IMG/VR virus record: IMGVR_UViG_3300034374_005671
Span: 19,370-83,369 of that record
DNA from: a virus
Direction: 5' to 3' (one strand)
Length of the DNA: 64,000 nt
Part shown: positions 3,001-20,012 of the stretch, in pieces
How the letters are laid out: every line of letters begins with the position of its first letter
Numbering within the stretch: the first letter of the stretch is position 1
Made by a program: the position numbers and the translations under genes
The notes under the pieces: generated by a model
What the model saw: only the letters and a program-made list of their open reading frames with translations
What the model was told of the DNA's origin: nothing
Database searches by the model: none

Positions 3001-4004
3001 TCCCTAACATATCAGACAATATGATAGACAATCCATATGAAGGATTAGGCATATCAATGGTATGGGATGATAGATACTCAAGATTATTCGTCACCAAGCT
3101 AGATGCCAAAGTAAAATCAGGTATCACTATATACGATGGACCTAAAGAAACACTTCCATGTGTACCAGGAGGGTCTATCACAATTGACGTTAGATACGAA
3201 GATGATAAAGAAAAGTTAGATTTTTGGTATCTTTCTCCATCTCCGTTCTGCGAAGGACCGACTTTAGTACACCCACAAACTCATCCAAACATATTTGACT
3301 CTGCTTCTTGGACTGTATCGTATAGTCCTATTACAAAGTCATGGGTGTCTTTCCACTCGTTCTTACCTAACTATTATGTAGCTCACAATAACTACTTCTC
3401 TTCAGGACTTAATTTCGGTTCTAATTCAGGTATTTGGAATCACTTACTTGGTAGTAATCAAACGTTCCAAGTATACTACGGAACACTGTACCCTTGGATT
3501 ATTGAGGTACCTGTGAAGCAGAACTACAACACAAGAATGTACGAAGACTTCTCGTATCGACTTGATGTTAGGAGATACAGCAATGAGTATGATTATCACT
3601 ATTTCCCTGAAAACTTTGATACAGCTGTATTCTACAATGACAGAGAATCTACAGGTTTGCTAAACCTTATAACTCAACAACAGAACAATCAACAACAATT
3701 GATTGAATTACCTAGATTTACTGGTAGTGGAGTTGATATATTAGCTACTAAATCAGACTATACTTGGTCAGTAAACTTCTTCCTAGATAACCTTAGAGAG
3801 AATCATACCTTACCAATATGGAATCATGCAGTAAACAATGTAGGTAAGAGCCTAAATGCAACAGCATTTAACTATCAACCTACATTCAAAAACCATATTA
3901 GAGGACAGTATCTCATTGCTAGGCTATCTCAGAATAATGAGTCCCGACTCAAGTATATCTTTGAACACTTCATTTCCGATTCACTACTTTACGATGCTTA
4001 TTAA
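3..4004 (+). CDS. Tail stabilisation/nozzle-like virion protein (crAss-like, P22 gp10-like), 5'-truncated by the window edge
   Basis: The frame is open from position 3, so TTG at 48 is probably not the start. The protein is Y/F/N-rich and beta-propeller-like, with motifs GGDTFI, DLGYGGTQH, FWVDAKRG and SWTVSYSP..KSWVSFHSFLPNYY that I recognise from crAss-like stabilisation proteins. It precedes the giant cargo genes. Confidence 0.7.
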   Translation, partial: GGYTGNDPFIDQNSFLYRMGSRRASGGRIPDGDINKIVIHLADNPTMFDGVDEIIVAVDTPLVSVTHMGRNNRSDYGGAGLGSAGLQANHTKQYFYASGTWGTLNIKADYPPIDKIELINGGELAINLEKTCVFETRCPFKVYEDLVCNPVPFEYGNFSYWESTLNYPNNNFLYDSQSVVITEADIPPDIRTEFQNVFTNGAPAAGQPYVLSDAADFSCKPIRHFKFPDFNTAPAFDQDAIPFRKNNIFPIGLHLDNEVIEAFLDIAVNNNYINQEFRDSITHYEIFRGDTKFDRSVIAKGLLYDMYQYPEYEFSTEDSNTDNNAWFSNFPYNDLSNNKLLYQDEDRTEYIPHPFRNSRAGAARKSNYKYTFHSPETSFDKPILPFEMYVESHFTGQSRGSFVAVKNHPVFTVLSPRAHRLAKILAATETSFEVLALSTELFIQVQQASGGVIPIGKVAAWIAWAILAGSAVASSIPAGRRRRVEWEEIFYNRGERHNFAYYYSSVGYYNQFSRANNDEFNTYGLVGDKLRGLKERLYIKDGRYRIDEAFDSQPTVINNTFRESSVFLSLGSEVESTLEQDSNFNYSFNLEPPAAIRNRDNSRYAASDHTCVNVGDRTPETTRSIASPYVSLKQFIPNQHGNINDLRYIYTSYCGKLGTDNSCDIVYGGDTFINRFYIKRKFPFFLAPMIDGNNSLPDLIPFNYQDVRNIGYPKYYLNYRMSERDESTSLGSIPNMVSDYELDCFSKGNKYIVPPSKFYLYYYGIPGFMVESAMNLDFRYGENETDKGYYPAQSDFYNWTQESVVPIREDNQYFYWNVYSTENDRVGYRYLPDNYDPAEFNCRFDHYDRTIYSLPDTNEQDLLDNYRVFLANNFYDFGSKYGPLKALHSIESAKVLGLFENGVVVFNAYSTIQATTDDYLVGNAGIFANRPQEYFKSDLGYGGTQHTAFATCQYGHFWVDAKRGRVYSVQPGGAGMQEISQNGLGNWFRENLPFRIKKQFPNISDNMIDNPYEGLGISMVWDDRYSRLFVTKLDAKVKSGITIYDGPKETLPCVPGGSITIDVRYEDDKEKLDFWYLSPSPFCEGPTLVHPQTHPNIFDSASWTVSYSPITKSWVSFHSFLPNYYVAHNNYFSSGLNFGSNSGIWNHLLGSNQTFQVYYGTLYPWIIEVPVKQNYNTRMYEDFSYRLDVRRYSNEYDYHYFPENFDTAVFYNDRESTGLLNLITQQQNNQQQLIELPRFTGSGVDILATKSDYTWSVNFFLDNLRENHTLPIWNHAVNNVGKSLNATAFNYQPTFKNHIRGQYLIARLSQNNESRLKYIFEHFISDSLLYDAY

Positions 4005-4006
4005 TT

Positions 4007-7000
4007 ATGATTAGACTAGATTTAAATAAAAAGTTAACTAAGGCTGAAAACGGTACAGTTATACCTGTAGCTAGACATCAAAATTATTTTACAGTTGACC
4101 CATTTGGGGAAGGTCTAGATAGACCAAATAATAATTTGTATGATGAGAGAAATAGGGGAGGAAGTAATGCATATTCTGCACCAACTTCAGGAGGGCAAGG
4201 GTTCTATGGAGAAGCTACTAGAAATAGAACAAATGCAGATGCAATAGTACAAAGCCAAATAGCACAAGAAACTCAAGCAAGAATTGACGAGGAAAAAGAA
4301 AGACAACAAGAGATAGACCGAAACACCCTGGCTCCATATAGTTACTATAGGAAGTATGATTTAGATAAAAAGCCTATTGCTGGTTATTCTCCTGGAACCC
4401 CAGGACACACATTTGCATTGTATGGAGAGGATATAAAAAATTATCAGTACGGATTCGACAGTGCAGAAGATAACATTGCATTAGCGAATCAGTTAAGAGG
4501 CATATATACAGATTACACAGGCTCCGAAAGGCAAGAAAAATTAGATGCTCTTAGAGATGCACAGTATCAAAGATACCTTATGAATCCTGAACGTTTGGCG
4601 GCTATGGACCAAGATATAGCATATAATGAAGGTATACAGTCTAACGTAGATAGGGATTTTGGACCAGGTGTTGATAATGCTAGGGCTGATGTTAATAATT
4701 TTAGGTATCAAATGAGATGGGACCCTTTATTATGGCAAGATAAAAAATTACCTCCTAAAAACATAAACTACAATAGTTTAAATTCACAAATACACACTAC
4801 TCTTGGTACTTTGGGAATGGTTCCAGTATTTGGAGAACCTTTTAACTTGTTAGATGCAGGGTTATACCATCTTGAAGGAGATAATTTCAACAGAAATCTA
4901 TCACTAGGCTCTATGATACCCTTTTTAGGAAATGCTACAGGAGGTGCTCAATTGGCTAGAAAAGGATTTCAATATGGAAAAAATTTCTTTAGGAGGGGAG
5001 CATCTGCAGCTCCTACGATAGCGAGAGGAGCTACCAATATTCCTTCTCCTCAATTTAGAGGAGTAAATAGACAATTATTTCAATCGGATATAGATTATGG
5101 AAAATCATTAGGGCTAGACATTAATAATGTAGATGACTTAATGAAGAATTATAATTTAAGAAACAGAACATACAGAGCGATTGATGTAAATCCTAATACA
5201 TTTAATGACCCAGGATTCAGACAAGCCGCAACAAATGTAGGGGTTGATGTAGAGGACGTTGATGCACTTACAACATATATGGGCTCATCAGTTCCTTACA
5301 AAAGGATAGGCAATGTATACACAGAGGGTTTATTGAAAAACACGGGAGATAGCAAATCATTTATGTTCACATCTCCAAACAAAGACTTTACTACAAATTA
5401 CATTAGAAATGCAGATAATCCCTATGTTTTTAGGTACCCCATATTTAATGATGATGTTACTAACCTAACTAATACTGATATACTAAACAGAATACGTTAT
5501 GGTACGAGAGATAATTTCAGTAATGTTGGACAATTTGGACAAGAATTACCATATGAGTTTTTATTACGTAATCCAGATGCAGCAAAAAGTCTAGGTAAAG
5601 GACAAATAGTATCAATGCCACCTAGTGGTAATAAACCTTTTGTACAGACAAACACCATACAGTTTGTAGGTAATAGAGGAGATGCAATAATAGACCCTAG
5701 TAAAGTTGAATTTATGTCACCTTCTAACCCTGCTTTTGTTGACTTCCAACAGGGAGGTACGGCAAGAAGACATCAAGATGCAGAACCTCTAACATTAGAG
5801 CAAAGGGCAGAAGCTATGGGCGAGAACCCAGAGTACGCTAGAAACGTACAAAAAATGCTTGATGAGGGGGCAACTATACAAGAGTTAGCCGCCAGAAGAG
5901 TAGGTACTGTAAGTGGTTTATCTAAGTTATTCCCTGATGCTGAAATGGGGACTGCGCCTGAACGAAGTTCAAGCAGAAGCACTAGTAGTTCTAGTAGTCG
6001 GGGAGGCGGGTCTGATGTAGAGTCCAGAGCAGCTGAATTTAATATGTCCCCCGAAAAGTTTGTTGGGTACTACAACAGGGGGGCAAGAATGATTAACGAA
6101 GGTAAGAGTATAGATGATTTAGTTAAAATGGGATATGGCACAAGAGGAGCCTTATCAAGAATGTTCCCAACTGCCCCTACTGAAACAGTTAAGGTGGAGG
6201 AAACACCAGAAAAATCTTCAAATCTTGATAATTTATCTCAAGAAGAGATTAATGCTCTTTGGGTGCAAATGGGGAATGATATTAAAGATGCTCCAAAGGC
6301 AAAGAACCCTGAAGGTACCCGTATAATGAAAGATTTTCAACCAATAGGATTTCTTGATTACACTCCCCCTCCTCCAACAGTAAATGAAGATTTAGATATA
6401 CTTAATTCTGCTGCTTCTTTTTCTTCGCAATCATTAGACGAAATAAGTACTCCCGACATTTTTAAAGAGAAAAAAGAAGTACAACCGCCTGGTAGCGGGA
6501 CAGTTCTGCCTGGAAGAAGAAATATCTTTACAGGGGAGTATGTAAGACCCGCAGAAGGTAAAGATATTTTTGAAGCTACAGGAGAATTTTTTAATAGAAA
6601 TATTGTAGAACCTATTGAGGGTTTTGTAGATAAAAACATCATACAACCTTTCGAAGAAAAGTTTATTGAACCTATACAAGAGGAAATTGAATTTGCACAA
6701 GGAACTTTTAGCCCAGAAGTACAAAAAGATTTAGCGGCTCTTGAGTCTAGTGAAAATCAACAAAAAATAGCAATGGAGATTCTTCTGAATCCCGACCTCA
6801 CTATACAAGATGCGTTGAGGGATAGTGGTTTTACTCATGCAGCTCAGGCTATGGATGATGTAGAATACCTAGAAGAAAATTATGGAGATTGGTATGATTG
6901 GTATTTAGACCAAGGTACTACGGCTAAAGCACTTAAGAATATAGGAGAATTTGTATCAGGACAGGACCTTGACGTTCCTCAAGAAGCCCAGGAAGGCATT

Positions 7001-7399
7001 TCTGCAGGCAGAGAATTTTCTAGAATGAAGGACTTTACTGGTATAGAGTTCTTGTCTGACCCTTGGGTTGCAGACAATTACGGTGACCAAATATTTGAAT
7101 CAGTTATGGGTTACAAACCAGAAGAGGGAGAATATGAAGAAGCCCTTCCAATGATACAGGATTTAATAGAAATCCAACAGTTGATGGCTGAACAGGGTTT
7201 TGATATTAGTGAAATATTCCAACAAGGAGGTAAAATAAAACTAGACCTTGAAAAAAAATTAGGAGTAGATATAGACAAGCTAGACCCTTTACCAATAGGT
7301 ACATCCTACAAATCCCGTAGGTTTTTCCAAGAAAATCCTCTTGCAGCCATAGCATATGGTAAAAATCCTTTTAGAAAAGCAGGCTCTCCACCAAGATAA
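4007..7399 (+). CDS. Putative internal virion (cargo) protein, 1130 aa, with pre-toxin (PT-TG-like) hairpin, ART-like domain and a ~50-aa tandem repeat
   Basis: Long ORF coupled to the upstream gene. Contains the HTTLGTLGMVPVFGEPFNLLDAGLYHLEGD..LSLGSMIPFLG segment, YRAI/FTS/YE motifs and FQQGG punctuation. Confidence 0.6.
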   Translation: MIRLDLNKKLTKAENGTVIPVARHQNYFTVDPFGEGLDRPNNNLYDERNRGGSNAYSAPTSGGQGFYGEATRNRTNADAIVQSQIAQETQARIDEEKERQQEIDRNTLAPYSYYRKYDLDKKPIAGYSPGTPGHTFALYGEDIKNYQYGFDSAEDNIALANQLRGIYTDYTGSERQEKLDALRDAQYQRYLMNPERLAAMDQDIAYNEGIQSNVDRDFGPGVDNARADVNNFRYQMRWDPLLWQDKKLPPKNINYNSLNSQIHTTLGTLGMVPVFGEPFNLLDAGLYHLEGDNFNRNLSLGSMIPFLGNATGGAQLARKGFQYGKNFFRRGASAAPTIARGATNIPSPQFRGVNRQLFQSDIDYGKSLGLDINNVDDLMKNYNLRNRTYRAIDVNPNTFNDPGFRQAATNVGVDVEDVDALTTYMGSSVPYKRIGNVYTEGLLKNTGDSKSFMFTSPNKDFTTNYIRNADNPYVFRYPIFNDDVTNLTNTDILNRIRYGTRDNFSNVGQFGQELPYEFLLRNPDAAKSLGKGQIVSMPPSGNKPFVQTNTIQFVGNRGDAIIDPSKVEFMSPSNPAFVDFQQGGTARRHQDAEPLTLEQRAEAMGENPEYARNVQKMLDEGATIQELAARRVGTVSGLSKLFPDAEMGTAPERSSSRSTSSSSSRGGGSDVESRAAEFNMSPEKFVGYYNRGARMINEGKSIDDLVKMGYGTRGALSRMFPTAPTETVKVEETPEKSSNLDNLSQEEINALWVQMGNDIKDAPKAKNPEGTRIMKDFQPIGFLDYTPPPPTVNEDLDILNSAASFSSQSLDEISTPDIFKEKKEVQPPGSGTVLPGRRNIFTGEYVRPAEGKDIFEATGEFFNRNIVEPIEGFVDKNIIQPFEEKFIEPIQEEIEFAQGTFSPEVQKDLAALESSENQQKIAMEILLNPDLTIQDALRDSGFTHAAQAMDDVEYLEENYGDWYDWYLDQGTTAKALKNIGEFVSGQDLDVPQEAQEGISAGREFSRMKDFTGIEFLSDPWVADNYGDQIFESVMGYKPEEGEYEEALPMIQDLIEIQQLMAEQGFDISEIFQQGGKIKLDLEKKLGVDIDKLDPLPIGTSYKSRRFFQENPLAAIAYGKNPFRKAGSPPR

Positions 7400-7422
7400 T
7401 TTACGTCATAATTTGTAAATTA

Positions 7423-7454
7423 TTTGGTTATATCAAATATGTTTTTTATATTCG
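7423..7454 (+). promoter_or_regulatory. Bacteroidetes sigma-A-type promoter (TTTG-N20-TATATTCG)
   Basis: TTTG at 7423-7426 and TATATTCG at 7447-7454, in the 75-bp gap before the ATG at 7475. Matches the -33/-7 consensus TTTG / TAnnTTTG with one mismatch. Confidence 0.6.
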
Positions 7455-7474
7455 TATTTATTCTCTAAATCAAT

Positions 7475-9964
7475 ATGTACAGGAACTTTACTAATAAAAG
7501 AAAATTTCAAGATGCTAACTCTATTGGCGCAGAGGGGACTGTGCAGAATATACCTATTGCTGATGTTAACTTCGATGATAATTACATAGAGCAATTAGAA
7601 AGCACTTTACCTCAAGATAATATTGATTTAAAGTTTGAAGACCTTTCTTTTTCTGCACAACAAGACCCTTACATGCGGCAATACTATGGTATCACGGAAG
7701 GTACAACATATAATCCTCCGTCAGGCATGCAACCTGCAGGTCCTCCTCAAGCTTCAACACCAGACATGAAGCCTGTAACATTAGGACAAAAAGTTAGGAA
7801 TAACACGATAAATAGGCTACAAAAAAGGTTATCTAATATTGAAGAAGGCAGAGAGAATAAAATAGCTAAGGCTGTAGATTTATTAGGTTTAGGAAATATA
7901 GGCACAGCAGGCGGGTATATGCAAGCTTTTACTGATTTACCCGAAAGAGCTTTCGCTAGAGCAGGGTACAATATGGAGCAAGGACCTAGAGGTAAAGCTA
8001 GAGCACTAGGAAACATAATAGAGGCCAGTACAGGGTTGGGAGGAGCTTTTTTGCAAGGGCTTGGTTCTTTTAAAAAGACAAAACCCATGACAGAAGAAGA
8101 GTACATCGCAGCTAAAAAAGCAGAGCAAGCCAAGAAAAACAATACTGTCATGATTGGCGATACCCGCTACACCTTAGTAGAAGATAGCGAGGGTAGAATG
8201 ACAATTGGACCTGAATACCAAGAAACCGAAACTATGAAAATGGGGGGACGAATGGGCCCTAAAGTTATTAAGAATCAAGATTTCTATACAAGACTAGATG
8301 AGGCAACTAAAGGAGTGAATCAGTCAGGGACTAGGAACACAGCTACACGTTCTGGAGTTGGAGAGCAATATAGCCTTGACCTGTCTACTGTTTTTCAAAG
8401 CCCTCAAGATTTGGTGGATTATTATGGCATGAGCAGTCTTACAAGTGACCCTAAATCTACTTACTATGTTAACCCAGAAAGGGCAAAAAGAATGTATGAA
8501 TTAGTCACAGGGTCAGGTAAAATAAACCCTGCTGAACTTCACATGATTATGCAGGCTAGAGGATTAGATTCAGAAGGTTATGAAAATTTAACCAATGCCC
8601 AAGTGATGGATGCTATTAATAAGGTTAATGAGCATATGCCTGGAACATATCAGGCTGGGCCTCAAGGAGGGTTTAGCGGTGAACAAAATTTAGCTGCTGT
8701 TCAAACTGCTTTAGACCATTACGGGGGCGTAAGAAGAGCTTATGGAGTACCTTTTACCCCAGGCCAAACAGCTGAAGAAAGATTTAGCGAACTGTATTAT
8801 GAAGATTATATGGCTAGTAATCCCAATACACCTGAAGGTAATATTGTCAAGTTAGACGGAGGAATGGGAGGTGTTATGCGCTTACAGAATGCCAGCCCTA
8901 CTATGTTTAATCCTTTTGCAATTCAAACACCAAGCATCCAACCTTTCACAATGGAACAAGTAGATGCTGATTTTGCAAATGTACCAGAGCCTTCACCATT
9001 CATGACTGATTTTGATATGGATGGTATTTCTGATTATATAGATATTGATGCAGGTGAAGGTACCAATCAAGCTTTACCAGGAGTATTAGGAGGACCATCG
9101 ATTGCTACCCCCACACCTACAGACTTTTCCTACTCTGATGCAAGTAGCCCTGTAGACATGACTACTGATTCCGATGGGGATGGTATTCCTGATTATCAAG
9201 ATGATTTTGATAATTCTATAGTGTCTGAAGAGGAAAGACAGAAAGACATAGCCAAAAAACAAAATTCTCTGTTTGGCATGGCAGCATCTTTAGGTTCTGC
9301 GGTAGGCTCCGATGATTTAACTTCTCGAGCAGCTCGTGCAGGTCTAATGGCAGGCCGCTTACTACAAGGAGAAAGCCCTTTAGCATCAACCATAGGGTTG
9401 GGAGCAGGGTTAGGTTCGGTTGGATTTGGAGCTGCAAGGACAATGAAAGGAGCTAGGGCAGAAGCTATCGCCACTGCAGATGCAAGAAAAAGAGCTGCAG
9501 AAAGATTAAGACAAGGGATTATGACAGGGGGTACAAAAGGCAGAGACGTAGCATCCCTAGAATCATATCTACAAAGTTCTACCTACGACCCTATGGCAAC
9601 AGAGTTTGGCCAAGATGGTATGATGATGGGGGGTAATAAAGGAGGAATGGCACAAGGTGGCAACCAAGGTACTCCTCCTCCCAAAGGAGTTGTGATTGGA
9701 CGAAATACTGCCAAGTACTTCCAAAAACCACAACTACCTGTTTCACCTAACGGTTTGGTAGAATATCCTAATCAAATGGTTAATGTACCTACAACAGGTA
9801 CTATAACTATGAATGAAGAAAAAGCAGGTGGACCACTACCTGAGTATGTTTTAGCTGTGCCTAACGGAGATACACCAGTCATAATGCAAAATGGTTACGA
9901 CTATGATTTCCCTAATAGTGACATGGTAACAGAGATACCCTTAAATCAAGCATTGTATGTCTAA
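7475..9964 (+). CDS. Putative internal virion protein, 829 aa, with two DxDxDG Ca-binding-like motifs, Gly-rich hydrophobic helices and a conserved C-terminal beta domain
   Basis: Motifs DFDMDGISD and DSDGDGIPD. The C-terminal ITM...VLAVP...MQNGYDYDFP...VTEIP domain resembles Bacteroidetes phage structural proteins. xxGG motifs are present. Confidence 0.55.
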   Translation: MYRNFTNKRKFQDANSIGAEGTVQNIPIADVNFDDNYIEQLESTLPQDNIDLKFEDLSFSAQQDPYMRQYYGITEGTTYNPPSGMQPAGPPQASTPDMKPVTLGQKVRNNTINRLQKRLSNIEEGRENKIAKAVDLLGLGNIGTAGGYMQAFTDLPERAFARAGYNMEQGPRGKARALGNIIEASTGLGGAFLQGLGSFKKTKPMTEEEYIAAKKAEQAKKNNTVMIGDTRYTLVEDSEGRMTIGPEYQETETMKMGGRMGPKVIKNQDFYTRLDEATKGVNQSGTRNTATRSGVGEQYSLDLSTVFQSPQDLVDYYGMSSLTSDPKSTYYVNPERAKRMYELVTGSGKINPAELHMIMQARGLDSEGYENLTNAQVMDAINKVNEHMPGTYQAGPQGGFSGEQNLAAVQTALDHYGGVRRAYGVPFTPGQTAEERFSELYYEDYMASNPNTPEGNIVKLDGGMGGVMRLQNASPTMFNPFAIQTPSIQPFTMEQVDADFANVPEPSPFMTDFDMDGISDYIDIDAGEGTNQALPGVLGGPSIATPTPTDFSYSDASSPVDMTTDSDGDGIPDYQDDFDNSIVSEEERQKDIAKKQNSLFGMAASLGSAVGSDDLTSRAARAGLMAGRLLQGESPLASTIGLGAGLGSVGFGAARTMKGARAEAIATADARKRAAERLRQGIMTGGTKGRDVASLESYLQSSTYDPMATEFGQDGMMMGGNKGGMAQGGNQGTPPPKGVVIGRNTAKYFQKPQLPVSPNGLVEYPNQMVNVPTTGTITMNEEKAGGPLPEYVLAVPNGDTPVIMQNGYDYDFPNSDMVTEIPLNQALYV

Positions 9965-12900
9965 AAGTATCTTTGACAGAAACCCTTTAACTGAAATGTT
10001 CTCTTCTATAGAAGAAGCAATGAGATGTGCTGATTCTATGGAGTTAAAGAATATGTTAAGAAACTCATTTAAAAATATAACAACAGACCCTATATTAGGT
10101 AAACCGAATAAATCTAAACAATCAATGTCAATCACAATAATTGCAGGTGATGACCTTAATAAATTAAATAATATAAACACACTGGAAAACGGAGGAAAAA
10201 TGAAAAAGTTTAAATACACAGGTAGATATGCTGATGGTGGTAAAAATTTGAAGCCAATCCCAGCAGACAACAAAGGACTTCAGGCTCTTGCCAAGAAGAA
10301 TCCTAAGTTAGTTATGGACATGGGATTCAATCCTAACAGCGTAGCAGCTAAAACTAAAGGTAAAAAGAAAGGACCTAAAGTTTCTAAGAATCAAGATGTT
10401 GAAAGAGTACCTGAGACTGCACGTATAGGTGATGACATGAGTAGCATGAACGCTCTTAAAAGACTTTATTATGATTATCTAGCTGGAGAGGGAGCTCAAA
10501 CTGATAGAGTAATACAGGCTGGAAGGATATTCCCGTTTGGTCAAATTTTTCAAGCTGCTGAGGGTATAACAGATATAATATATCCTTTTCTGACTGATGA
10601 GAGTCAAGCAAAGGAGGACAAACGTAGAGCCATCCAGCAAGAAGCTACTGAAGACTTAGAAGAATACAAACAATATTTAAAAGACAAGGGACTATACAAA
10701 ACACCTTTTGAAACTGTAAAAGGCTTTTTCGGTTTTCAAAACGGAGGAATGGGACCTAAAGTTCCTAAGAATCAAGGTGGAAGATTAGTTGTACCAGGAT
10801 TTACTGGTGGTATGATTGACCCAACCACAGGAGAAAGAGTACCTATGCTTGAGGATTATGTCAGAAAAGGTATGCAGTATTTCATGGGAGATACTACAGC
10901 TAACCCACCTAAGTTTCAAAATGCAGACCCCACTATCGTACCTTCTGTTACAAACTTAGATGAGACAGTTGTAACTGCTTATCCAAATGAAGGAGAGATG
11001 GGAGTACTCAACACCACAATTTATACGCCACAAAATGTCTCTAAGAAACAGCTGAGACAGATGAATAGAAATAATGCAGCTCAGGCTATGATGTCAGGAG
11101 AGCCTCTTTCTTACGCAGAACTTGCAGCTATGTACGGACCGAGAAAAGCTTCTAGAATCATTGCATCGGGAGCAGGTGCTTCAAATTTCAATCAAAATAT
11201 AAGCGGTGTATCTAGTGCAAATGCAGACGTAGGGGATGTAACCTCAACTTCAGAAGTAGGAAATGTAAGTTCATCTTCAGTTTCAGATTCTTCAGGAAAC
11301 GCTATGGACATGCAAGGTGCTAACATTGGTTCAGGCGTAATGGACAACTCGCAGATGGTAACTAACCAAAACGGTGGAAGAATGACTCCTAACCTTGGAG
11401 GATACCCTGACATCCCTTACTTATTTGGATATCAGATAGGAGGAATGGTACCTGGTTATCAGAATGCTGCCCCATCCATCAGAAATTTCCCAAGTAGTAT
11501 TGAAGGATTTCCTAATTTTCAAATGCCTGTAGCTGGCTCTCCTTCCGAAGGAGGTACCACTGAATTTATGAATTCAGACCAAAGTGTAATGTATAATGAG
11601 CGAGCGTGGGTAGAAATGCTTCAGAATCTAGGTGTTGATGCTGAACAACTATTAGCAGGAGGTGGAGCAAATTTACCTGCATTTTTAGATAAAATGGCTC
11701 CTCAATTAAGAAACCAAGTAACTGGTATACTAGAGGGCGCAGGCATTTCAGTTCCTCAGAGTAATGCACAACTAATTTCAGGCTTTAAGAATTTGCTACA
11801 GGAGAACCCTCAAATATTATCTGAGCTTAAAAAATTAGAGAATATAAGCATGGAGGATGTTATGAATTTGGGTACTGAAGCTCTAGGGGAGCAGGGTATG
11901 CAAGGATTATTAGGCATAATCAACAATCCATTCTTTAAAAAACTTGAAGGACAAGCACTACAATTTGGACAAGCTATGCAAGGCTCAAAAGAAGTGCAAG
12001 ATTTACTTGGTCTAATAAATAAGGCTCGAGATGTGTATGACGAGGTAAGTTCACAGCCCTCTACTGCTCCAACAACTGGTGGTAGTGCGCCTGCTGCAGG
12101 TGATGAAAGCACAGCTGAGGTTGCTACTGCAGAAGACAATAAAGATAGGTCAAACTATCCTTATAAAGTATTTAAGAATGTTGGTCTTGACATAAAAGAC
12201 TTCCAAAAAGGTCAATATTCTGACCGTTCTGCTGATAGCAATAGAGAACTTAGAAGACTTTTACAAGAACATTTAGCTGCAGGAGGCTCACCTGAAACAT
12301 TTAGTGTCAGACAGACAGCTGAAACTGCTGATATTGAAGAGGCTAAAAGGAAATTAATGGAGAACATTACTACAGTTCCAGTTGAATTCGAGGACATTGT
12401 GCCTGAAGATGAACTAGAGAAAGTCAGCCTGAGCGAAGAACAAACGGTCCCAACGTCTCGTAGACAAAATAGACGAGCCAATAGACTTGAGAAGCTTGAA
12501 GGCAGACTGGAAAGAACTCAACAAAGAACGGCAGATAGACAAGCTAGAAGAGACGACAGGCAGCAAAGAAGAGCAGATAATCAGGCGGTTAGAAGCAATC
12601 AAATGCAGCAAATAAAAGACCTTAGAGAGCAAATCCGAGCTGCTAGAGGTAATGCTATGGACGGTATGAGATATTTCCCACCTACCATAGGAGGTAATAT
12701 TCCTAACGGAGGACAGATGGCACCTGCATTCAACTTTGCTCAAGACGGCATACTTACTGGTATGCGACCAAATATGATGGCACCACCTTCATATCAAAAA
12801 GGAGGCATAATGAATGTACAACCAATGCCTTATGACCCTACCTCTCAAGATAGCACTATGCTTGGTGGAGGTACTGCTCCTATGTTCCAAGATGGCACCG

Positions 12901-13208
12901 ATTATCTTAGGAATCTACGTGTACCAGGATATACTGGGGGCATGATTAATCCAATGACAGGAGCAATCATTAGAACTCCCCAAGATATGATTAATCAGGG
13001 ATTAAACTACTTTGTACCTGATTCTACTAGGGTATCACCACCTCGAAATCAAGATGGCCAAATGATGAGAGGAATTGCACCAAGTAATGAGCCTTACCAC
13101 TTAGAGAAATTAGGGATTGCACCAGTGGGTGGACCATCTTTGAGACCAACTCCACTAGGCCAAATGATGAGACCTATGCCTCTTAATAGAATTCAAAGAT
13201 TACGCTAA
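9957..13208 (+). CDS. Putative internal virion protein, 1083 aa, low complexity (M/G/Q/P-rich), modular
   Basis: Overlaps the upstream stop. Carries about 12 QxGG/QDG/QNA motifs and a duplicated VPG[FY]TGGMI[DN]P module. Confidence 0.55.
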   Translation: MSKSIFDRNPLTEMFSSIEEAMRCADSMELKNMLRNSFKNITTDPILGKPNKSKQSMSITIIAGDDLNKLNNINTLENGGKMKKFKYTGRYADGGKNLKPIPADNKGLQALAKKNPKLVMDMGFNPNSVAAKTKGKKKGPKVSKNQDVERVPETARIGDDMSSMNALKRLYYDYLAGEGAQTDRVIQAGRIFPFGQIFQAAEGITDIIYPFLTDESQAKEDKRRAIQQEATEDLEEYKQYLKDKGLYKTPFETVKGFFGFQNGGMGPKVPKNQGGRLVVPGFTGGMIDPTTGERVPMLEDYVRKGMQYFMGDTTANPPKFQNADPTIVPSVTNLDETVVTAYPNEGEMGVLNTTIYTPQNVSKKQLRQMNRNNAAQAMMSGEPLSYAELAAMYGPRKASRIIASGAGASNFNQNISGVSSANADVGDVTSTSEVGNVSSSSVSDSSGNAMDMQGANIGSGVMDNSQMVTNQNGGRMTPNLGGYPDIPYLFGYQIGGMVPGYQNAAPSIRNFPSSIEGFPNFQMPVAGSPSEGGTTEFMNSDQSVMYNERAWVEMLQNLGVDAEQLLAGGGANLPAFLDKMAPQLRNQVTGILEGAGISVPQSNAQLISGFKNLLQENPQILSELKKLENISMEDVMNLGTEALGEQGMQGLLGIINNPFFKKLEGQALQFGQAMQGSKEVQDLLGLINKARDVYDEVSSQPSTAPTTGGSAPAAGDESTAEVATAEDNKDRSNYPYKVFKNVGLDIKDFQKGQYSDRSADSNRELRRLLQEHLAAGGSPETFSVRQTAETADIEEAKRKLMENITTVPVEFEDIVPEDELEKVSLSEEQTVPTSRRQNRRANRLEKLEGRLERTQQRTADRQARRDDRQQRRADNQAVRSNQMQQIKDLREQIRAARGNAMDGMRYFPPTIGGNIPNGGQMAPAFNFAQDGILTGMRPNMMAPPSYQKGGIMNVQPMPYDPTSQDSTMLGGGTAPMFQDGTDYLRNLRVPGYTGGMINPMTGAIIRTPQDMINQGLNYFVPDSTRVSPPRNQDGQMMRGIAPSNEPYHLEKLGIAPVGGPSLRPTPLGQMMRPMPLNRIQRLR

Positions 13209-13227
13209 TATATCTCAATACTAAAGT

Positions 13228-16200
13228 ATGAATTTTTATAATCTTGACTTACTTTCTAATTACCAAGATGGCGGTAATACTAAGATAGAAGAACAGGTAT
13301 CAGGTAGATACGTGAAGGGTGTTGCAAAACCTGAACAGCATGATGTTAATGCTGAGGTTGAGAAAAATGAATTTATACAGTATCCTGATAGAGAGATATC
13401 CCAAGTAGACCCAAAAGGTAAATCACACGCTCAAGGGGGAGAATTTATGAATCTTCCCCCTGAAACTAAAATTTTATCCGATAATATTAAGATTGGTAAA
13501 GAATTACGTGATAGATTAGAGGATATGTTTGGCGTAACTCTAAAAACATCTGATACTATTGCTAAGGCAATGGAGAAAGTAAGGAAGAGTATAGGAATGG
13601 AATCCATCCTTGTTCGAATGGAACAATACCTTAAAAAGATAAAAGAAAATAATAAGGTAAAAGACAAGGACACTAAAAGAGTCAATGAGGAATACTTAGC
13701 TAATAAAATCTACGAACTAGAACAAGAGCGAAATCAAAAGAAAGAACTTGAGAATCAAGTCTTTGAGATGTTGTTTAATGTTCAAGAGACTAGAAAGCAA
13801 GCTGAACAAATGGGTGACCCGAATCATCAGAATATCAGAAAACGTCCCCCAATAGACCAGCCTACTGAGCAAGAGATGTCTGATTATGAGCAGATGAAGG
13901 AGGCAAAACAACCTAAAAATTTGGCTAGACCAGGACAGCAAGGACCTGAGACTATGCAGGTGATGGCTGAAAATGGTGGAAGACTCATAGAGGTTTTCTT
14001 CGATGGGGGGTCTCCTTACGTGGGCAATATGAATGATATGCAAGCCTTAGAGGTTCAAGCTATGCAAGATGGTTATGATAATCTTGATGAGTTTATTTTT
14101 GGTGTTTATTCTGACGGAGGAGGTATACCACAAAGGTATAGAAGCAAAGGATTCACCAAAGTAGGTGTAAAGAAAAGAGCACCTTCTGGAGCTAAACACA
14201 AATGGGAAGTCCTTGCACGTAAAAAAGTAGGAGGCAAAACAAGATATAAAATTGTTAAAGGTGGCTTCCGTGGGATGAAAGATTTTAAATCTCACAAAGA
14301 CCCTAAGAGAAAGAAAAGATTTTGGGACAGAATGGGGGGTAAAAACTCTCCCAAAGCAAAAGACCCATTTTCTCCTTTGTATTGGCACAAACGTTTTGGT
14401 ACTTGGGAAGAAGGAGGAGTGCTAGGATATCAAAATGCTGGTGAAACAGCATCCGCATTTGCTGCAAGAATGGGTCAGGCTTGGCCTAAAGGTGTAAAAG
14501 ACCCAGTATACAATGCCGATACTAAAATGTGGGAATTTGCTGATGGTACACCAGCTATTAGTAGGGGGGATGCTATGAATTTAGCAAGAGATATTAATCG
14601 AACAGGTGAGGTACCAGATGCCTATAAAGTAGCTGAAAATATAAGAAACCAGGGGGGAGTAGCATCCACACCAATTACTCCTAGTGAAGAGCAAACAGCA
14701 GCTAACCAGAACGGACCAGTTACTCAATATAATCCAGAACCTGTAGATATAGGAGGTGTACCTCACTATGAAGTAATAGTAGATGGTAAACCTTATTTGC
14801 TTGAAGCAGGCAAAGTTTCTACCATTCAAACAGATGATGGCTCAATATTCCGAGTAGATATGGGAGATGTAGAATCTCAAGATTTTAGTGTGGACACTAG
14901 GCAAGAAGCAGGATATAGAACAGGTTACTCATCAAGAGGCGATGTAAAAGGTTATAGAGGGGCTGATAAGGCCGCTATTGATGCTCAAATAGCAGAACTA
15001 GAATCCGATTTAGCTCCTTTCTTGCAAGCTATCGAAGACGGCACAGTACAAGCTGACCCTGAAACAGGCAAGTTTAATTTACCTCTTACTATTAGAGGGG
15101 GTAGCTCATCCAGACCTATGGCACTGGGGCAAACTAAGAGCCAACTTCAGTCTAGTTTTGAAAACTTAATACAATACAATCCTGAATTAGAAGGCCAAGT
15201 TGGTTTTATCCAGCCTGATGGTTCAATAGACCCTAACAAACAGACTGGACAGGTAGCATTACCTGCAGGATTTCATAATGTATTTGGAGATGAGTTTGAC
15301 CCAGGAACCATAGAAACTTTCGATTTAGATGAATTAAGTAGGGGAGGGAAAGAAGGTGAAGAAGCTCTATCTAATATTGGTAATGATGCATTAGCGTACA
15401 ATAGAAACAGAACCGAGTATGAAGAGGTTCTCCTTCCTTTCCTAGAACAAAAAGGCTATGATATAGACCAATTTAATGTCTCTAACGAAATGCTACCATA
15501 CAGAACTGCTGAAGAAACAGCAGCTGACTTAGGAATAGATTACGAAAAAGTACAAGCAGGAGATTTCTCTGAATTATCAGAGAGATTAGGCAGAGAGATA
15601 ACCTCGGTAGAACAAGCTAAGGAATTCTTACTTGATGCTGCTCAGTTCTCAGGGATTGGAGGGGCTTCTGAAGGAGAATTAACTTCTTTGGTATCTGAAG
15701 TAACTCCAGATGACGGAGGGATACCACCTCCTATAATTCAAGATGACCCTGTTATGGGAGGTCCTATGCTATTATCTACTCCTAGAAGACTAGGCCCTGA
15801 CCCAATGATGGTTGGACCTTTCATTATGCCTGAGTACGACAGAGTATCAGCTATGAAGGTATCTCCTCAAGCGGGTTATCAAGCTAATACTAAGCAGGTT
15901 AAAGCGGGTATGGACCTATTAACTCAATCAGTTGGTTCTCAAGCGGGTGCAAATGTTGCTAATCTTTTAGGACAGTCTGCAGAAGGTATTAACCAATTGA
16001 CAGCTAATACTAATCAACAAAATGCTCAATTGAAGCAACAAGCTGACCAGATGAATGCTCAAATACAGCAGGCAGAAGCTGCAGCAAGAGCACAGGCATT
16101 AGCTACCTTTGGTACAGAATCAATGACAGCATACGCTAATACTTTAGCAGACAGAAGGGCTTACTTAAATATATTGGAAGAAGATAGATTAGCAAGGGAT

Positions 16201-16449
16201 GCAGAAAGAAGACAGCTACAAATTCTTGATGCAATATACCCTCAATATACATTTGATATGTTTGGAAATGTACTTTACGACCCTTCAAGAGCAGGAGATT
16301 TCTACGTACCAGAAACTGCTTTAGCTCAACAAATATATAACCAAGGAACAGGGACAAGCGGAAGCACTGAGGCAGTAGATGAGAATTTTGATACTAGAAC
16401 TATTGACGGTATCACATATCTAAGAGCACCTGATTCGTATCAGAGTTAA
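13228..16449 (+). CDS. Putative internal virion protein, 1073 aa (NAEVE..SHAQGG domain, coiled coil, basic cassette, Q/A-rich C-terminus)
   Basis: The NAEVEKNE...GKSHAQGG..LP...ILSD domain is typical of crAss-like/Bacteroidetes phage structural proteins. The C-terminal Q/A coiled coil resembles ejection (pilot) proteins. Confidence 0.6.
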   Translation: MNFYNLDLLSNYQDGGNTKIEEQVSGRYVKGVAKPEQHDVNAEVEKNEFIQYPDREISQVDPKGKSHAQGGEFMNLPPETKILSDNIKIGKELRDRLEDMFGVTLKTSDTIAKAMEKVRKSIGMESILVRMEQYLKKIKENNKVKDKDTKRVNEEYLANKIYELEQERNQKKELENQVFEMLFNVQETRKQAEQMGDPNHQNIRKRPPIDQPTEQEMSDYEQMKEAKQPKNLARPGQQGPETMQVMAENGGRLIEVFFDGGSPYVGNMNDMQALEVQAMQDGYDNLDEFIFGVYSDGGGIPQRYRSKGFTKVGVKKRAPSGAKHKWEVLARKKVGGKTRYKIVKGGFRGMKDFKSHKDPKRKKRFWDRMGGKNSPKAKDPFSPLYWHKRFGTWEEGGVLGYQNAGETASAFAARMGQAWPKGVKDPVYNADTKMWEFADGTPAISRGDAMNLARDINRTGEVPDAYKVAENIRNQGGVASTPITPSEEQTAANQNGPVTQYNPEPVDIGGVPHYEVIVDGKPYLLEAGKVSTIQTDDGSIFRVDMGDVESQDFSVDTRQEAGYRTGYSSRGDVKGYRGADKAAIDAQIAELESDLAPFLQAIEDGTVQADPETGKFNLPLTIRGGSSSRPMALGQTKSQLQSSFENLIQYNPELEGQVGFIQPDGSIDPNKQTGQVALPAGFHNVFGDEFDPGTIETFDLDELSRGGKEGEEALSNIGNDALAYNRNRTEYEEVLLPFLEQKGYDIDQFNVSNEMLPYRTAEETAADLGIDYEKVQAGDFSELSERLGREITSVEQAKEFLLDAAQFSGIGGASEGELTSLVSEVTPDDGGIPPPIIQDDPVMGGPMLLSTPRRLGPDPMMVGPFIMPEYDRVSAMKVSPQAGYQANTKQVKAGMDLLTQSVGSQAGANVANLLGQSAEGINQLTANTNQQNAQLKQQADQMNAQIQQAEAAARAQALATFGTESMTAYANTLADRRAYLNILEEDRLARDAERRQLQILDAIYPQYTFDMFGNVLYDPSRAGDFYVPETALAQQIYNQGTGTSGSTEAVDENFDTRTIDGITYLRAPDSYQS

Positions 16450-16460
16450 ACAAGTATAAA

Positions 16461-19400
16461 ATGGCTACAGCTTATTCACAACCTTTACAGTATACACCTT
16501 ACCAGGAGCAATGGAATAAAGAGCTTCTGGCTAAGGCTTTGCAGTATAAGCAAGATAAATATGATACAAACAGGCAAGTCATAAAAGAGACTATTGCTCA
16601 AGTGTCTAACATCGACTTGATAAAAGACCAAGATGCTGAATATCTATACGACAGACTGCAAACAGTAGTTAACAACTTAAATACTCAAGGTACAGGTGAC
16701 CTCTCTCTAGATTCTAGAGCTGATTACCTAACAGGGTATGTTGCTGATGTGGCAGACCAAAAAGTAATGAATGGTTACATTGGTACTAGGGCATACAGAA
16801 ACGTAGTTGCAGAGCACGAGAAGTATAAAGAAACAGGAGAAGCTTCTGATTTAAATTTATCTTATTCTTTGCAAGATATTAGTGCTTGGGCCAATGATGG
16901 CCAAATCGGAAGCGCATTACCTGCAGGAGCAAATACATCCTATGTAAAGTTTACTGATTTATATGAAAAATACCAAGAGGTAGCAAAAGCTTTACAACCT
17001 GATTCATATGTGGTGTTTGAACAATTTGGTGGAAGCGGATTCACATGGTACAGTCAGGAAGGTCTAAGACTCGATAAAAATAAATTAGTTTCTGCTTTTA
17101 ATTTAGCTACAGAATCAGACCCTGCCATCCAAGACCAGTTAAGAGTAAATGCTTGGGGAGCAAATTTAAATGTTAGTGATGCAGATTTCATAGCAACTTT
17201 TAAAGAAGATGGAGCAAGAGAAAAAGAAGCTATTGGTAGGTACATCAATAGACTAAAAGATGCTAAAGCTAAGAGTGTCAGTTCGTCTGAAATGGCCGAG
17301 TTGGATGCTAACATAGCAATATATGAAGAGCAAGTTAAGCAATATGATGAAGCTCTTATGATGACTGACGAACAGATACTAGCAAATAAAGAATCATACC
17401 AGTATCTTTCATACAGAAGTTCTTATTTTACTGACTTGGCAGGAGTATTTTCATATGAACAAATGGAAGCACCTAAATTAGTAACAGACCAAGGTGCACT
17501 AGAAATGTACAAACAGCAGCAAGCAAACGCTAGAAACAGAGCTAGAATACAATCAAAAGAAGATATAGCTAGGGCAAAAGCAATTGTCGAAGAGGATAAA
17601 ATGAGAATTGAAGATGAAAAAGCACTTAAAGCCTTAGCTATAGAGATACTTAAGGAAGAGGATACGGATATACAAGAGGGAATGTTACGATTCAATCAAG
17701 ATTTAATTGCTCGTAATCCTGAATACGCTGCTAAACTAAATTTAGTTACAAACTTTGAAAAGAAAGAACCTAGATTAACCCTTGAAGAAGCTGCAAGTGA
17801 ATACAATGTAGATTTAGTGGCTGTCAGTGAGGGAGATTACTCGACTATAGCAAGTGCTATGGGGGAAGGTGCAGTCCTTCCCGAGTTTGAAAGCCCCCAA
17901 GAGGCAGCTGCTTTTTTAGTAAGTCAGGCTAACATAGCGAAAGGGTTTGACAACACTAACAGTTACGACCCAATGCTTGATGCTTATCTTGCAAACGGAA
18001 TGATATCTCAAAAACAATATAATGAGATGACAGCTGGAGGTTATTCAAATTTAACTCCAGATGAATTCCAACAACTATTCAACCCTATAGAAACAACGGC
18101 TGGCGTTCAAAACTTACAATTTGACGACATGACTGTCACAACTGATGATGGTGGGCAGGAAGAACTCAATACCCTAAATATTCAGACTAAAATAAATGAG
18201 TTCTATGGTAAAAACGATGTGATAGAAGAGCAAGCCAGAAAAGAACTTGTAACAATATATGGGGAAGAAAAAGGGAATAGACTCTATAGAGAATTGGCAG
18301 GACTGGATAATATGTATTACCTTCGAATTATTGGAAAAGATACAGACGGTAGCAATATTATTCAAAAAGAGTATGCGACCTACGACAAAGACGGCAAAAT
18401 AGATATAAAATCCACGGAAGCTGATTGGGATAGAAATAATTATCTTTGGAATGAAAATGCTAATGAACCAATGTATTATAAGGACCTAGGTACTAATGAT
18501 ATTCGTGCTATGGTTAATCCAGCCGCATTAACTGGTTATAGGCAGGACATACCCGAGGAACAAGTATTTGCAGCTGCTGACAGGTTATCAACTTTAATGA
18601 CTCAGTATTCCGTAAACGAGCAAACTATAAATCACTTAGTAAATGCAAGGGATGGAGTGAGAACAGACTTTCGTTCCATCGCTGACGAGGCAGCAGACAA
18701 TATCATAGATAATAAATTGAGTTTTTTAATTCATAACGATAAAGGAGGGTCTTGGAATGCAATGTACAATGAGGATGAAGACTTATGGTTTATTGAGGGT
18801 ACATGGGATGCGAAGAATATGAGACCACTATCCATAGGCGAGGAGGGTGTAAGAAGAAATCTTAGGAATAAACTAGGTCCAGGTAAAATGCCAGGTAAAG
18901 AGTATTCTTGGTGGAACTTTACAAAATGGGGCACATCAGAGGCAGGTACAGCTGACTATATAGAAACATATGATATAGGCACATGGGGGGCCACAAACAA
19001 AAACAGAATCAGTTTGGAAGCTAATAATGACCAAGCAGAGAGAATCGTATTAGATAACGCCCTACTTCTAACAGCACCTAAAGAGAGTTTTTCTCTTGCA
19101 AGGAACAATGAACAGCAGTATCTTAGCTCAATTATAGCAGCCAACCAATCTAATTTTGAACCTATAACTGCATCTGATATCGCTATGCTTGGTGAAGGCC
19201 AAAATTTACAACTTAAAACAGGAGTTAAGGACGAAGGCGACAAAACAGTAGTACCTGCTGCTTTAGGACGTTTCACGGCCCTTACTGATGGTGCAGTGAT
19301 AGACCAAACAATAAAAAATAATGTAGGAGCTACAGAGGACAATGCAGCTACTACAACAGCTATGGATGGTAACGCAAGTATAATTACTACTGGCGGTTAC

Positions 19401-20012
19401 CACTATATTATAGCGGGATATGATACTCGAAATAAGGATGAAGTTAGCGTGATAGGGGGTAAAATACCTGTAGGGGCAATAGATTACTCGCAACCTAACC
19501 CTTTTCATGGTACATTACAAAATCAAATTACTGCTGCAAAGACTGCAGAAAACAACTACTATATGGAAAGGGTAGTGGCTAATAGACTGGAGTGGGATGC
19601 GGAGACTCAGACAGGAGAAAGATATATTGAACCTTTGGACAGAGCCCAACAATATTTTTCTCCTAACTTTTCAGTCGATGGTGTTAGTTACACTGCAGAG
19701 CTTAACCAATCAATTGAAAGGGTAGGACCCAATGATGTAGATTACGGATTGGTTGTAAAAGTTAACAAATTCACTACTGATGAGAATGGTAATAAGGAGC
19801 CCCATATATTCCAAGGAGGGGAAGGTAATGAAAATAATATTGACTTTATATGGACACCTCTTGATGCGAATGGAAATCCTTTAACATTTGATACACCAAG
19901 TGATTTTCAATTGTATATTCAAGAAAATTATAACGATGAAACAGCTCCTCTTGCTTTTGCATCAGCTATAAATGCATCAAACGAAGTACCAACAACAATA
20001 AACAAACCTTAA
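16461..20012 (+). CDS. Putative internal virion/ejection protein, 1183 aa
   Basis: The N-terminus MATAYSQP.QY.PY....ELL.KALQYKQDKYD resembles crAss-like cargo proteins. Lies in the cargo cluster. Confidence 0.55.
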   Translation: MATAYSQPLQYTPYQEQWNKELLAKALQYKQDKYDTNRQVIKETIAQVSNIDLIKDQDAEYLYDRLQTVVNNLNTQGTGDLSLDSRADYLTGYVADVADQKVMNGYIGTRAYRNVVAEHEKYKETGEASDLNLSYSLQDISAWANDGQIGSALPAGANTSYVKFTDLYEKYQEVAKALQPDSYVVFEQFGGSGFTWYSQEGLRLDKNKLVSAFNLATESDPAIQDQLRVNAWGANLNVSDADFIATFKEDGAREKEAIGRYINRLKDAKAKSVSSSEMAELDANIAIYEEQVKQYDEALMMTDEQILANKESYQYLSYRSSYFTDLAGVFSYEQMEAPKLVTDQGALEMYKQQQANARNRARIQSKEDIARAKAIVEEDKMRIEDEKALKALAIEILKEEDTDIQEGMLRFNQDLIARNPEYAAKLNLVTNFEKKEPRLTLEEAASEYNVDLVAVSEGDYSTIASAMGEGAVLPEFESPQEAAAFLVSQANIAKGFDNTNSYDPMLDAYLANGMISQKQYNEMTAGGYSNLTPDEFQQLFNPIETTAGVQNLQFDDMTVTTDDGGQEELNTLNIQTKINEFYGKNDVIEEQARKELVTIYGEEKGNRLYRELAGLDNMYYLRIIGKDTDGSNIIQKEYATYDKDGKIDIKSTEADWDRNNYLWNENANEPMYYKDLGTNDIRAMVNPAALTGYRQDIPEEQVFAAADRLSTLMTQYSVNEQTINHLVNARDGVRTDFRSIADEAADNIIDNKLSFLIHNDKGGSWNAMYNEDEDLWFIEGTWDAKNMRPLSIGEEGVRRNLRNKLGPGKMPGKEYSWWNFTKWGTSEAGTADYIETYDIGTWGATNKNRISLEANNDQAERIVLDNALLLTAPKESFSLARNNEQQYLSSIIAANQSNFEPITASDIAMLGEGQNLQLKTGVKDEGDKTVVPAALGRFTALTDGAVIDQTIKNNVGATEDNAATTTAMDGNASIITTGGYHYIIAGYDTRNKDEVSVIGGKIPVGAIDYSQPNPFHGTLQNQITAAKTAENNYYMERVVANRLEWDAETQTGERYIEPLDRAQQYFSPNFSVDGVSYTAELNQSIERVGPNDVDYGLVVKVNKFTTDENGNKEPHIFQGGEGNENNIDFIWTPLDANGNPLTFDTPSDFQLYIQENYNDETAPLAFASAINASNEVPTTINKP

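Follow-up and report, generated by a model that had tools for sequence, protein, structure and literature searches.

The stretch of viral DNA considered here, called the window in the following, comprises 64,000 nucleotides (nt), bases 19370-83369 of the 83-kb record IMGVR_UViG_3300034374_005671, for which a completeness of 54% is estimated. Eight large open reading frames (ORFs), A to H, all on the plus strand, span window positions 3-36631, and in four consecutive ones, B to E, we observed a short Gly-Gly peptide, which recurs far above chance and at which closely related phages differ from one another by whole blocks of sequence. This peptide will be called a joint and the exchanged blocks cassettes; the strict motif used for counting is [FYWM][QESAK]xGG or [FYW]Q[DN][AG]. 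The coordinates of genes and features are collected in Table 1, and positions within proteins are given in amino acids (aa).

The phage of the window is crAss-like, with B to E at what corresponds to the cargo-gene position of crAss001. Gene A matches phrog_37948 (E 5e-222), and its aa 1154-2355 (about 1200 aa) share 32% identity with a csAssE-Sib protein annotated as 'Muzzle protein' (E 1e-180). In csAssE-Sib, a crAss-like phage, the two structural proteins next after the muzzle are matched by E and F; the gene order A, variable genes, E, F is common to the window, csAssE-Sib and Cellulophaga phage phi4:1. Distant orthologues of A, E, G and H in phi4:1 are gp042, gp040, gp038 and gp035, all of them annotated as virion proteins on tandem mass spectrometry (MS/MS) evidence in that record, and the place of B, C and D is taken there by one different gene, gp041. 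In crAss001, the muzzle gene is followed by those for cargo proteins C1 (gp45) and C2 (gp46), which are stored in capsid and tail (Bayfield et al. 2023; PMC10172136). Because A is a muzzle homologue, the crAss001 genes in this position encode cargo and the phi4:1 orthologues carry MS/MS annotation, the label 'virion cargo proteins', proposed for B to E in the preliminary description, seems reasonable: for E by orthology, for B, C and D by their position after the muzzle gene. Beyond this, Pfam, PHROGs and NCBIfam yielded almost no matches for B to H (and NCBIfam no tape-measure match), sequence searches of PDB chains with A, D (as a profile), E, G and H returned no match, megablast and tblastn against a phage collection found no near relative, with D lacking any match, and a search for related loci in viral contigs gave nothing for D or for the C homologue P0145.

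Measured against residue shuffles that keep the amino acid composition, the strict motif occurs 16 times in B to E, where 1.8 copies are expected (z 10.8; 0 of 500 shuffles reach the observed number), and once in the flanking giant proteins A, F, G and H taken together, where 1.9 are expected. The two-part form, GG-x(2-10)-Q[DNE][AGF], is found seven times in B to E against 0.8 expected (z 7.2). The enrichment of the Gly-Gly motif in B to E is thus confirmed, about 16 copies fitting a clearly non-random pattern, and with it two statements of the preliminary description, namely that the motif is often bipartite and that it is nearly absent from the larger proteins downstream; the figure of about 25 copies given there, on the other hand, depends on the definition, the loose one applied there giving 41 matches against 19.9 expected (z 4.8). 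Most of the strict signal resides in D and E, B and C being weakly enriched when taken alone, and 15 of the 23 strict matches in the whole 83-kb record fall in B to E.

How joints behave in nature can be seen in three relatives, L005, L006 and L007, obtained from one metagenome scan. L005 is a metagenome contig with 93-97% nucleotide identity to the window over 20 kb. Five large differences, indels or replacements, separate the two in B, C and D, and all five have at least one end exactly at the motif. From B, aa 13-586 are missing, so that a MIRLDLNK-type leader runs directly into RKLQDAEPL, which aligns with RRHQDAEPL of the window; further downstream in B, an 83-aa insert follows directly on FQQGGK. 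From C, aa 259-463 are missing, with the MGG codon repeat ATGGGNGG at both ends (8-nt overlap), and in D aa 150-270 are replaced between KNQDV and K-x-Q-x-G-LVVPGF, as are aa 506-558, the replacement starting directly after YQIGGMVPGYQNA. The segments differing in L006 and L007 likewise end on the motif: in L006, 34 nt at 10741-10774 are 100% identical to the window and both flanks are unrelated, and in L007 a joint of E is split by 67 inserted aa, WEEGG standing before them and the second half of the joint after them. Among the homologues of B, C, D and E in general, the homology breakpoints, that is, the ends of high-scoring segment pairs (HSPs), pile up on the motif: at aa 583-591 and 1066-1076 in B, at aa 147-151, 474-479, 503 and 945-953 in D, and most heavily at aa 11-18, 250-268, 279-298 and 397-422 in E. 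That the motifs sit at the edges of recognisable domains, as had been suggested, is borne out by the toxin-like block of B, which ends at FQQGG (aa 579-583), and by the basic DUF5754 cassette of E, bounded by YSDGG and WEEGG.

Cassettes are also found detached from their proteins. The modules of B (aa 1-343, 257-591, 585-770 and 1069-1130) have separate homologues in different proteins, the 60-aa C-terminal one being common to proteins of 94-2210 aa. Homologues of D are mosaics, in whose alignment conserved, motif-bearing anchors alternate with unrelated cassettes; aa 150-284 of D recur at aa 997-1128 of the otherwise unrelated 1569-aa protein P0021, again flanked by GG...NQ joints, and the segment following this D-type cassette in P0021 is the cassette carried by another D homologue. 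Since the C cassette has a 35%-identical homologue inside P0011, a D-family protein of another phage, cassettes move between genes as well. The occurrence of whole-cassette differences ending on the motif in near-isogenic relatives, together with a C cassette in a D-family protein, supports the motif as a module boundary and exchange joint, in agreement with the earlier proposal of a recombination joint. Within D, moreover, a module of about 47 aa is duplicated (aa 279-325 and 989-1035; VPG[FY]TGGMI.P.TG ..., with a Q[ND][AG] half-joint at its end), and its first copy is missing in L006 and P0010 exactly between FQNGGMGP and RFQNA; a 47-nt internal repeat of D, at 10790-10836 and 12920-12966, is real as well.

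At the DNA level, the linker GPKVxKNQ, described earlier as almost identical in two different genes, is indeed encoded by a repeat with three copies in two genes (at 8246, 10362 and 10743), the latter two sharing 88% and 71% identity with the first; for six of the seven shared residues the three copies agree in the codon, for which the codon usage of the region itself gives P ~0.002. DNA identity exceeding the need of the protein is restricted to such long linkers, most five-residue copies varying in their codons. Joints kept as a recombination signal for shuffling only, with no role of the peptide, could explain both this codon identity and the 34-nt island between unrelated flanks in L006, but distant homologues keep the peptide pattern while residues and codons vary (YQDGG, YADGG, MKNGG, WEEGG, WAEGG); this indicates selection on the protein, and a signal confined to the DNA seems very improbable.

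Table 1 Genes and joint-related features of the window (numbering in window nucleotides; AF2, AlphaFold2; pLDDT, predicted local distance difference test)
Feature	Position	Strand	Remarks
Gene A	3-4004	+	3' part of a 2362-aa gene (full record); crAss-type muzzle homologue; without junction motif; start of cargo gene block
Gene B	4007-7399	+	1130 aa; modular cargo-type protein
B cassette aa 13-586 (pre-toxin-like and toxin-like block)	4043..5764	+	absent from the 95%-identical L005; blastn gap 4042-5774
Two-part joint FQQGG-TARR-HQDA (B aa 579-592)	5741..5782	+	HSP ends aa 583-591, starts 585-587; right end of cassette missing in L005
Joint FQQGG (B aa 1070-1074)	7214..7228	+	opens 60-aa C-terminal module; module homologues start aa 1066-1076
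Gene C	7475-9964	+	829 aa; mosaic homologues P0145-P0154
N-terminal half-joint FQDA (C aa 11-14), after basic leader	7505..7516	+	homologues have [FY]Q[DN]A here
Joint MKMGG-RMGPKVIK-NQD (C aa 254-269)	8234..8281	+	includes DNA repeat copy 1
C cassette aa 259-463	8249..8863	+	absent from L005 and L006, present in L007; blastn gap 8247-8863
Joint GGMGG-VMRL-QNA (C aa 462-473)	8858..8893	+	closes C cassette
Gene D	9957-13208	+	1083 aa; mostly helical modules with low-confidence coil between
Joints LENGG and YADGG (D aa 76-95)	10182..10241	+	nearly invariant in 11/12 aligned homologues
Linker GPKVSKNQD (D aa 139-147)	10371..10397	+	DNA repeat copy 2; breakpoint cluster aa 147-151, n=7; left end of cassette replaced in L005, L006, L007
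D cassette aa 150-258	10404..10730	+	other sequence instead in L005, L006, L007; present in P0021
Joint FQNGG-MGPKVPK-NQGG (D aa 260-275)	10734..10781	+	DNA repeat copy 3
Joint cluster NQNGG..PNLGGYPDIPYL..YQIGG-MVPG-YQNA (D aa 470-504)	11364..11468	+	invariant island in homologue alignment; breakpoints aa 474-479 and 503
Joint cluster FAQDG, YQKGG, FQDG (D aa 927-980)	12735..12896	+	breakpoint cluster aa 945-953, n=8
Gene E	13228-16449	+	1073 aa; phi4:1 gp040 orthologue, gp040 annotated MS/MS virion protein
Joint YQDGG (E aa 12-16)	13261..13275	+	opens conserved N-terminal module; breakpoint cluster aa 11-18, n=16
Joints AENGG and FFDGG (E aa 247-261)	13966..14010	+	AF2 pLDDT 75-89: beta-meander, GG at turns
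YSDGG, DUF5754 basic cassette (E aa 299-392), WEEGG-VLG-YQNAG	14107..14442	+	HSP starts aa 294/298 (36 hits), ends 397/399/405 (45 hits)
Gene F	16461-20012	+	
Gene G	20018-30076	+	3352 aa
Gene H	30083-36631	+	2182 aa

Some further features of B and C should be mentioned. Residues 255-330 of B (within window 4769-5780, B aa 255-591) match more than 200 proteins of many lengths and fit a widespread pre-toxin-type segment; the block of about 250 aa that follows has its own homologues in proteins of 1261-1444 aa. The N-terminal leader of B, MIRLDLNKKL (window 4007-4036), recurs after the C-terminal joint as GG-KIKLDLEKKL (7223-7258), and leaders of this type also open the B homologues of L005 and L006 as well as P0156 and P0157. 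In C, two acidic repeats of the form D-x-D-x-DG-I-x-DY-x-D (9005-9043 and 9164-9202; 82% DNA identity) resemble calcium-binding, thrombospondin-type-3-like motifs.

The joint is by no means confined to this phage. With E as query, 363 homologous proteins were found; in 119 E homologues, [MYFW]xxGG occurs 1008 times against 149 expected (median 9 per protein), with a preferred spacing of 6-9 residues, and about 50% of 1703 GG sites have M, Y, F or W at position -3 from the first Gly, aromatic residues being enriched there 3.5-6 fold. The basic DUF5754 cassette, 94 residues in length, recurs in about 100 proteins of 600-1850 aa that otherwise differ from one another, and nearly all of these show an aromatic- or Met-xxGG before the cassette and W-x-x-GG after it, many with a second copy (e.g. 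MQDAG or YQNAG) 3-6 residues past the first downstream motif. In the E homologues, motifs sit between DUF5754, LysM/YkuD, tail-lysozyme and DUF5872 modules, and within their first 30 residues family members show an about 3-fold enrichment of the Q[DNE][AG] half. The N-terminal module of E is internal in gp040 of the cultured relative phi4:1, following SYQNGG, and the homology between E and gp040 begins exactly at YQDGG / YQNGG; an aromatic-xxGG precedes this module in 23 of 25 homologues. Four motif copies are carried by gp040 (NFQAGG, SYQNGG, TFQIGG and KFQSGG) and none by the other 11 phi4:1 structural proteins checked; a gut crAss-like homologue of E is without the strict motif. One might object that Gly- and Gln-rich disordered linkers yield such strings by composition alone, and D and E do show a general excess of GG dipeptides, but the shuffles, the aromatic enrichment at -3, the count of 1008 against 149 and the position kept across homologues refute this explanation, to which we give practically no credence.

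As regards the modules themselves, the one following YQDGG in E shows the pattern NAEVEK[GN]E[FY] .. G.SH..GG. Residues 1-110 of E (13228-13560) look by eye like a GEFV-type tape-measure C-terminus (HRGEFVF in lambda, MGEHGTEVV in T5); hhalign gives no homology. For the DUF5754 cassette (window 14122-14403), the best Foldseek matches in BFVD are small stand-alone viral proteins of 84-116 aa (probability 0.8-1.0). Literature mentions of DUF5754 were found only for eukaryotic viruses, namely a giant virus and polinton-like viruses of algae.

MGWLKKYQQGG or a similar string opens many family members, and GGWLSKYK closes them; among the DUF5754-containing E homologues, P0079, P0088, P0099, P0105, P0137, P0139 and others start M-G-W-L-x-K-Y-Q-x-G-G and end G-G-W-L-x-K-Y-(K). 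From this pattern, the fuller form of the joint would seem to be a W-L-x-K-Y peptide with Gly-Gly on its flanks. Such terminal copies would suit a docking or loading tag, i.e. a short linear motif, which binds a repeated site (portal, tail-barrel rings, scaffold or DNA) and thereby tethers and loads each module. The motif is furthermore confined to proteins in the cargo position, neither the muzzle nor the giant proteins downstream having it, and in crAss001 the largely unresolved or unfolded gp45 and gp46 have short segments bound to portal and tail barrel, those of gp45 being separate from each other (PMC10172136). Against a tag speak the lack of any partner, structure or co-variation support, the lack of a sequence match in PDB chains, and the restriction of the motif to gp040 among the 12 phi4:1 structural proteins checked, by which it is not a general loading signal; we therefore consider a docking tag quite unlikely.

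Predicted folds give the joint a different aspect. The AF2 model of E aa 236-423 (64 sequences; pLDDT 79), for which Foldseek found no match in the PDB, folds MQVMAENGG-RLIEVFFDGG-SPYV into a beta-meander of three strands, whose turns hold the Gly-Gly pairs; YSDGG connects a helix to DUF5754, and WEEGG...YQNAG is disordered. The model of D is poor (mean pLDDT 40), with every motif cluster in coil between predicted helices. Because D motifs lie in coil and the E copies at beta-turns, in a helix link or in a disordered stretch, the joint is, as far as these models go, a turn or hinge element that is structured in some copies and not in others.

The preliminary description had also raised the possibility of a maturation-protease site. 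According to such a scheme, the joints would be cut after Gly-Gly or within the linker by a phage or host protease, and modules would be freed in the capsid or in the host. Several features fit: the sequence preference is on the non-prime side and has GG at its end, a leader of 8-12 residues ending in GG starts many family members, and what follows Gly-Gly resembles true N-termini (KIKLDLEKKL after GG compared with MIRLDLNKKL at the start of B; GIPQRYK after GG compared with AIPQRYK after the initial Met of P0047; RRHQDAEPL after FQQGGTA compared with RKLQDAEPL after MIRLDLNKSL in L005). On the other side, the distance between copies is often 6-9 residues, so that cutting would leave tiny peptides, and two copies form turns inside the confidently folded beta-meander. 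The search for a protease was unsuccessful: S78 and S77 (PF04586, PF03420), C5 and C48 (PF00770, PF02902) and MPTase-PolyVal (PF18818) have no match in the 83-kb record, itself only about 54% complete, and HExxH is absent from all of its ORFs of at least 100 aa; in the complete phi4:1 genome, S78, S77, C5 and C48 matches are absent and MPTase has none above the cut-off. As the head genes of the window's phage lie outside the fragment, the absence of a prohead protease of the S77 (gp21-like) or S78 type applies to phi4:1 only. One candidate should nevertheless be named, since it counts in favour of processing: the 739-aa 'tail protein' gp041 of phi4:1 (L001 16819-19038) has two HExxH, at aa 384 and aa 627, matches MPTase-PolyVal weakly (E 0.022) and may be a virion metallopeptidase; it is without a homologue in the window's record.

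Known Gly-Gly signals do not coincide with the joint either. Adenain and pS273R of African swine fever virus share with it a Gly-Gly at P2-P1 and an upstream hydrophobic residue. Their Gly-Gly-X processing follows the consensus (M/L/I)-x-G-G-x, cut after the second Gly, with the hydrophobic residue at P4. In the joint, however, the hydrophobic residue (M/Y/F/W) is at P5 and P4 is Q/K/E/R/A, so that the adenain register was rejected; C5 and C48 were not found, and those viruses belong to a different realm. A bacteriocin double-glycine leader differs in its hydrophobic position, and a transglutaminase Q-tag (aromatic-Q-x-G-G) was discarded as well, Q occupying that position in 16% and being interchangeable with K/E/R/A. 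Precedents in favour of a cut exist among ejected phage proteins. Lambda gpH is cut to gpH* and gpHC in its glycine-rich C-terminal region, site and catalyst being unknown (PMC12617516), and this region contains FATGG, YATGG and MRDGG within the last 120 residues; T5 pb2 is cut after R1127 (PMC10038345). Both thus resemble the joint proteins in being cut in or beside a glycine-rich region with aromatic-xxGG strings, but they have no detectable homology to the window modules and undergo one cut each, not a repeated code. An origin of the joint from gpH is not supported in spite of the motif's presence there (hhalign probability 0.1 for a 25-sequence alignment of the E N-terminal module against gpH aa 691-853), the five-residue motif being all that the two have in common. 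A match to the T5 cut was rejected, as this falls three residues before AEGG, not after GG. Cleavage is likewise unmentioned in the main text of the crAss001 paper (PMC10172136). Cleavage at the joints is therefore the less likely reading, one which we consider unlikely, and it is unnecessary to explain the data.

Joints are conserved at the protein level across hundreds of otherwise unrelated phage proteins, and natural insertion, deletion, replacement and movement of modules occur at them. The interpretation we favour, with moderate confidence, is that B to E are modular internal-virion (cargo or ejection) proteins, whose aromatic- or Met-xxGG joints are points of module exchange, the peptide also having a role in the particle. 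A module would be closed by the joint (aromatic residue or Met, two variable residues, Gly-Gly), and the next one would be opened by a usually basic spacer of 3-8 residues followed by [K/R/Y]-x-Gln-[Asp/Asn]-[Ala/Gly]. The joint being the sole sequence common to unrelated modules, its short DNA identity could help exchange; a junction placed at a Gly-Gly turn or hinge would leave the modules intact and could be kept by selection. The peptide's own role would most likely be that of a turn or hinge, or of a docking element in a chain that is packed and then threaded through the tail. Several points weigh against this interpretation: the peptide's own function is only what we infer; in many family members the motif also stands at the extreme N- and C-termini, where a hinge acting purely between domains would not account for it; most copies are too short and too degenerate in DNA to guide homologous recombination, so that the guiding step holds for the longer linkers only; the breakpoint statistics at cluster level are moderate (P 0.004-0.017); and the virion location of B, C and D is deduced from gene position. 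In a wider and rather doubtful version, the aromatic-xxGG joint would be a general 'cargo train' code of tailed phages, which the particle would read either by cutting there or by docking the peptide on the portal and tail channel. Such a code would span crAss-like cargo, hundreds of DUF5754 virion proteins and the glycine-rich cut regions of tape measure proteins; any module between two joints could be packed and injected, and phage populations could trade effectors as in-frame cassettes.

Phages are known to inject ready-made proteins, though the way in which new cargo comes to be accepted by a particle is not understood. A conserved joint, at which unrelated modules (toxin-like, DNA-binding-like, cell-wall enzymes) pass in frame between genes and between phages, would explain the fast diversification of injected arsenals, and it would make cargo proteins of uncultured phages easy to recognise from sequence. 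A search of the literature on Gly-Gly phage polyproteins turned up no description of such joints. The closest concept to B to E seems to be that of polyvalent proteins, described from phages and conjugative elements. These are large proteins of mobile elements, built of several domains, which are predicted to be packed together with the DNA and delivered along with it, and for which processing by built-in zincin-like or assemblin-like peptidases was proposed (Iyer, Burroughs, Anand, de Souza, Aravind 2017; PMC5512222). Similarly, B to E and their homologues combine unrelated effector-type modules (toxin-like, cell-wall, DNA-binding) in many orders, with several such domains per polypeptide: a pre-toxin-like and a toxin-like one in B, DUF5754 in E, and LysM, YkuD, tail lysozyme and DUF5872 as additional domains of E homologues. 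In contrast to polyvalent proteins, the defining peptidase is absent in this record and a defined aromatic-xxGG ... Q[DN][AG] joint is present; a text search of PMC5512222 for 'linker' and 'glycine' gave no occurrence, and no description of a junction peptide was found there.

The crAss001 cargo proteins resemble B to E in their location, B to E likewise lying directly downstream of the muzzle gene and upstream of giant virion proteins. Homology to gp45 and gp46 was not detected, phmmer and hmmsearch with E and the D alignment against all PDB chains, among which the crAss001 entries are assumed to be, returning nothing at E <=1, with no direct comparison made to the full gp45 and gp46 sequences. 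Joints and cassette exchange are not described in the passages of PMC10172136 consulted.

As a mechanism, the closest analogue would be recombination at conserved motifs in the tail-fibre genes of T-even phages. Adhesin segments of these fibres are reported to be swapped at His boxes in gp37 and at glycine-rich motifs in gp38 (Tetart et al. 1998). At the borders of lambdoid modules, 'linker' sequences mark the boundaries. In these systems, hypervariable segments are bordered by short conserved motifs at which related phages recombine, which is also what is seen at the joints of B to E. The T-even and lambdoid motifs, however, belong to receptor-binding proteins or gene boundaries, whereas the joints lie inside internal cargo-type proteins, in several genes and in hundreds of otherwise unrelated proteins.

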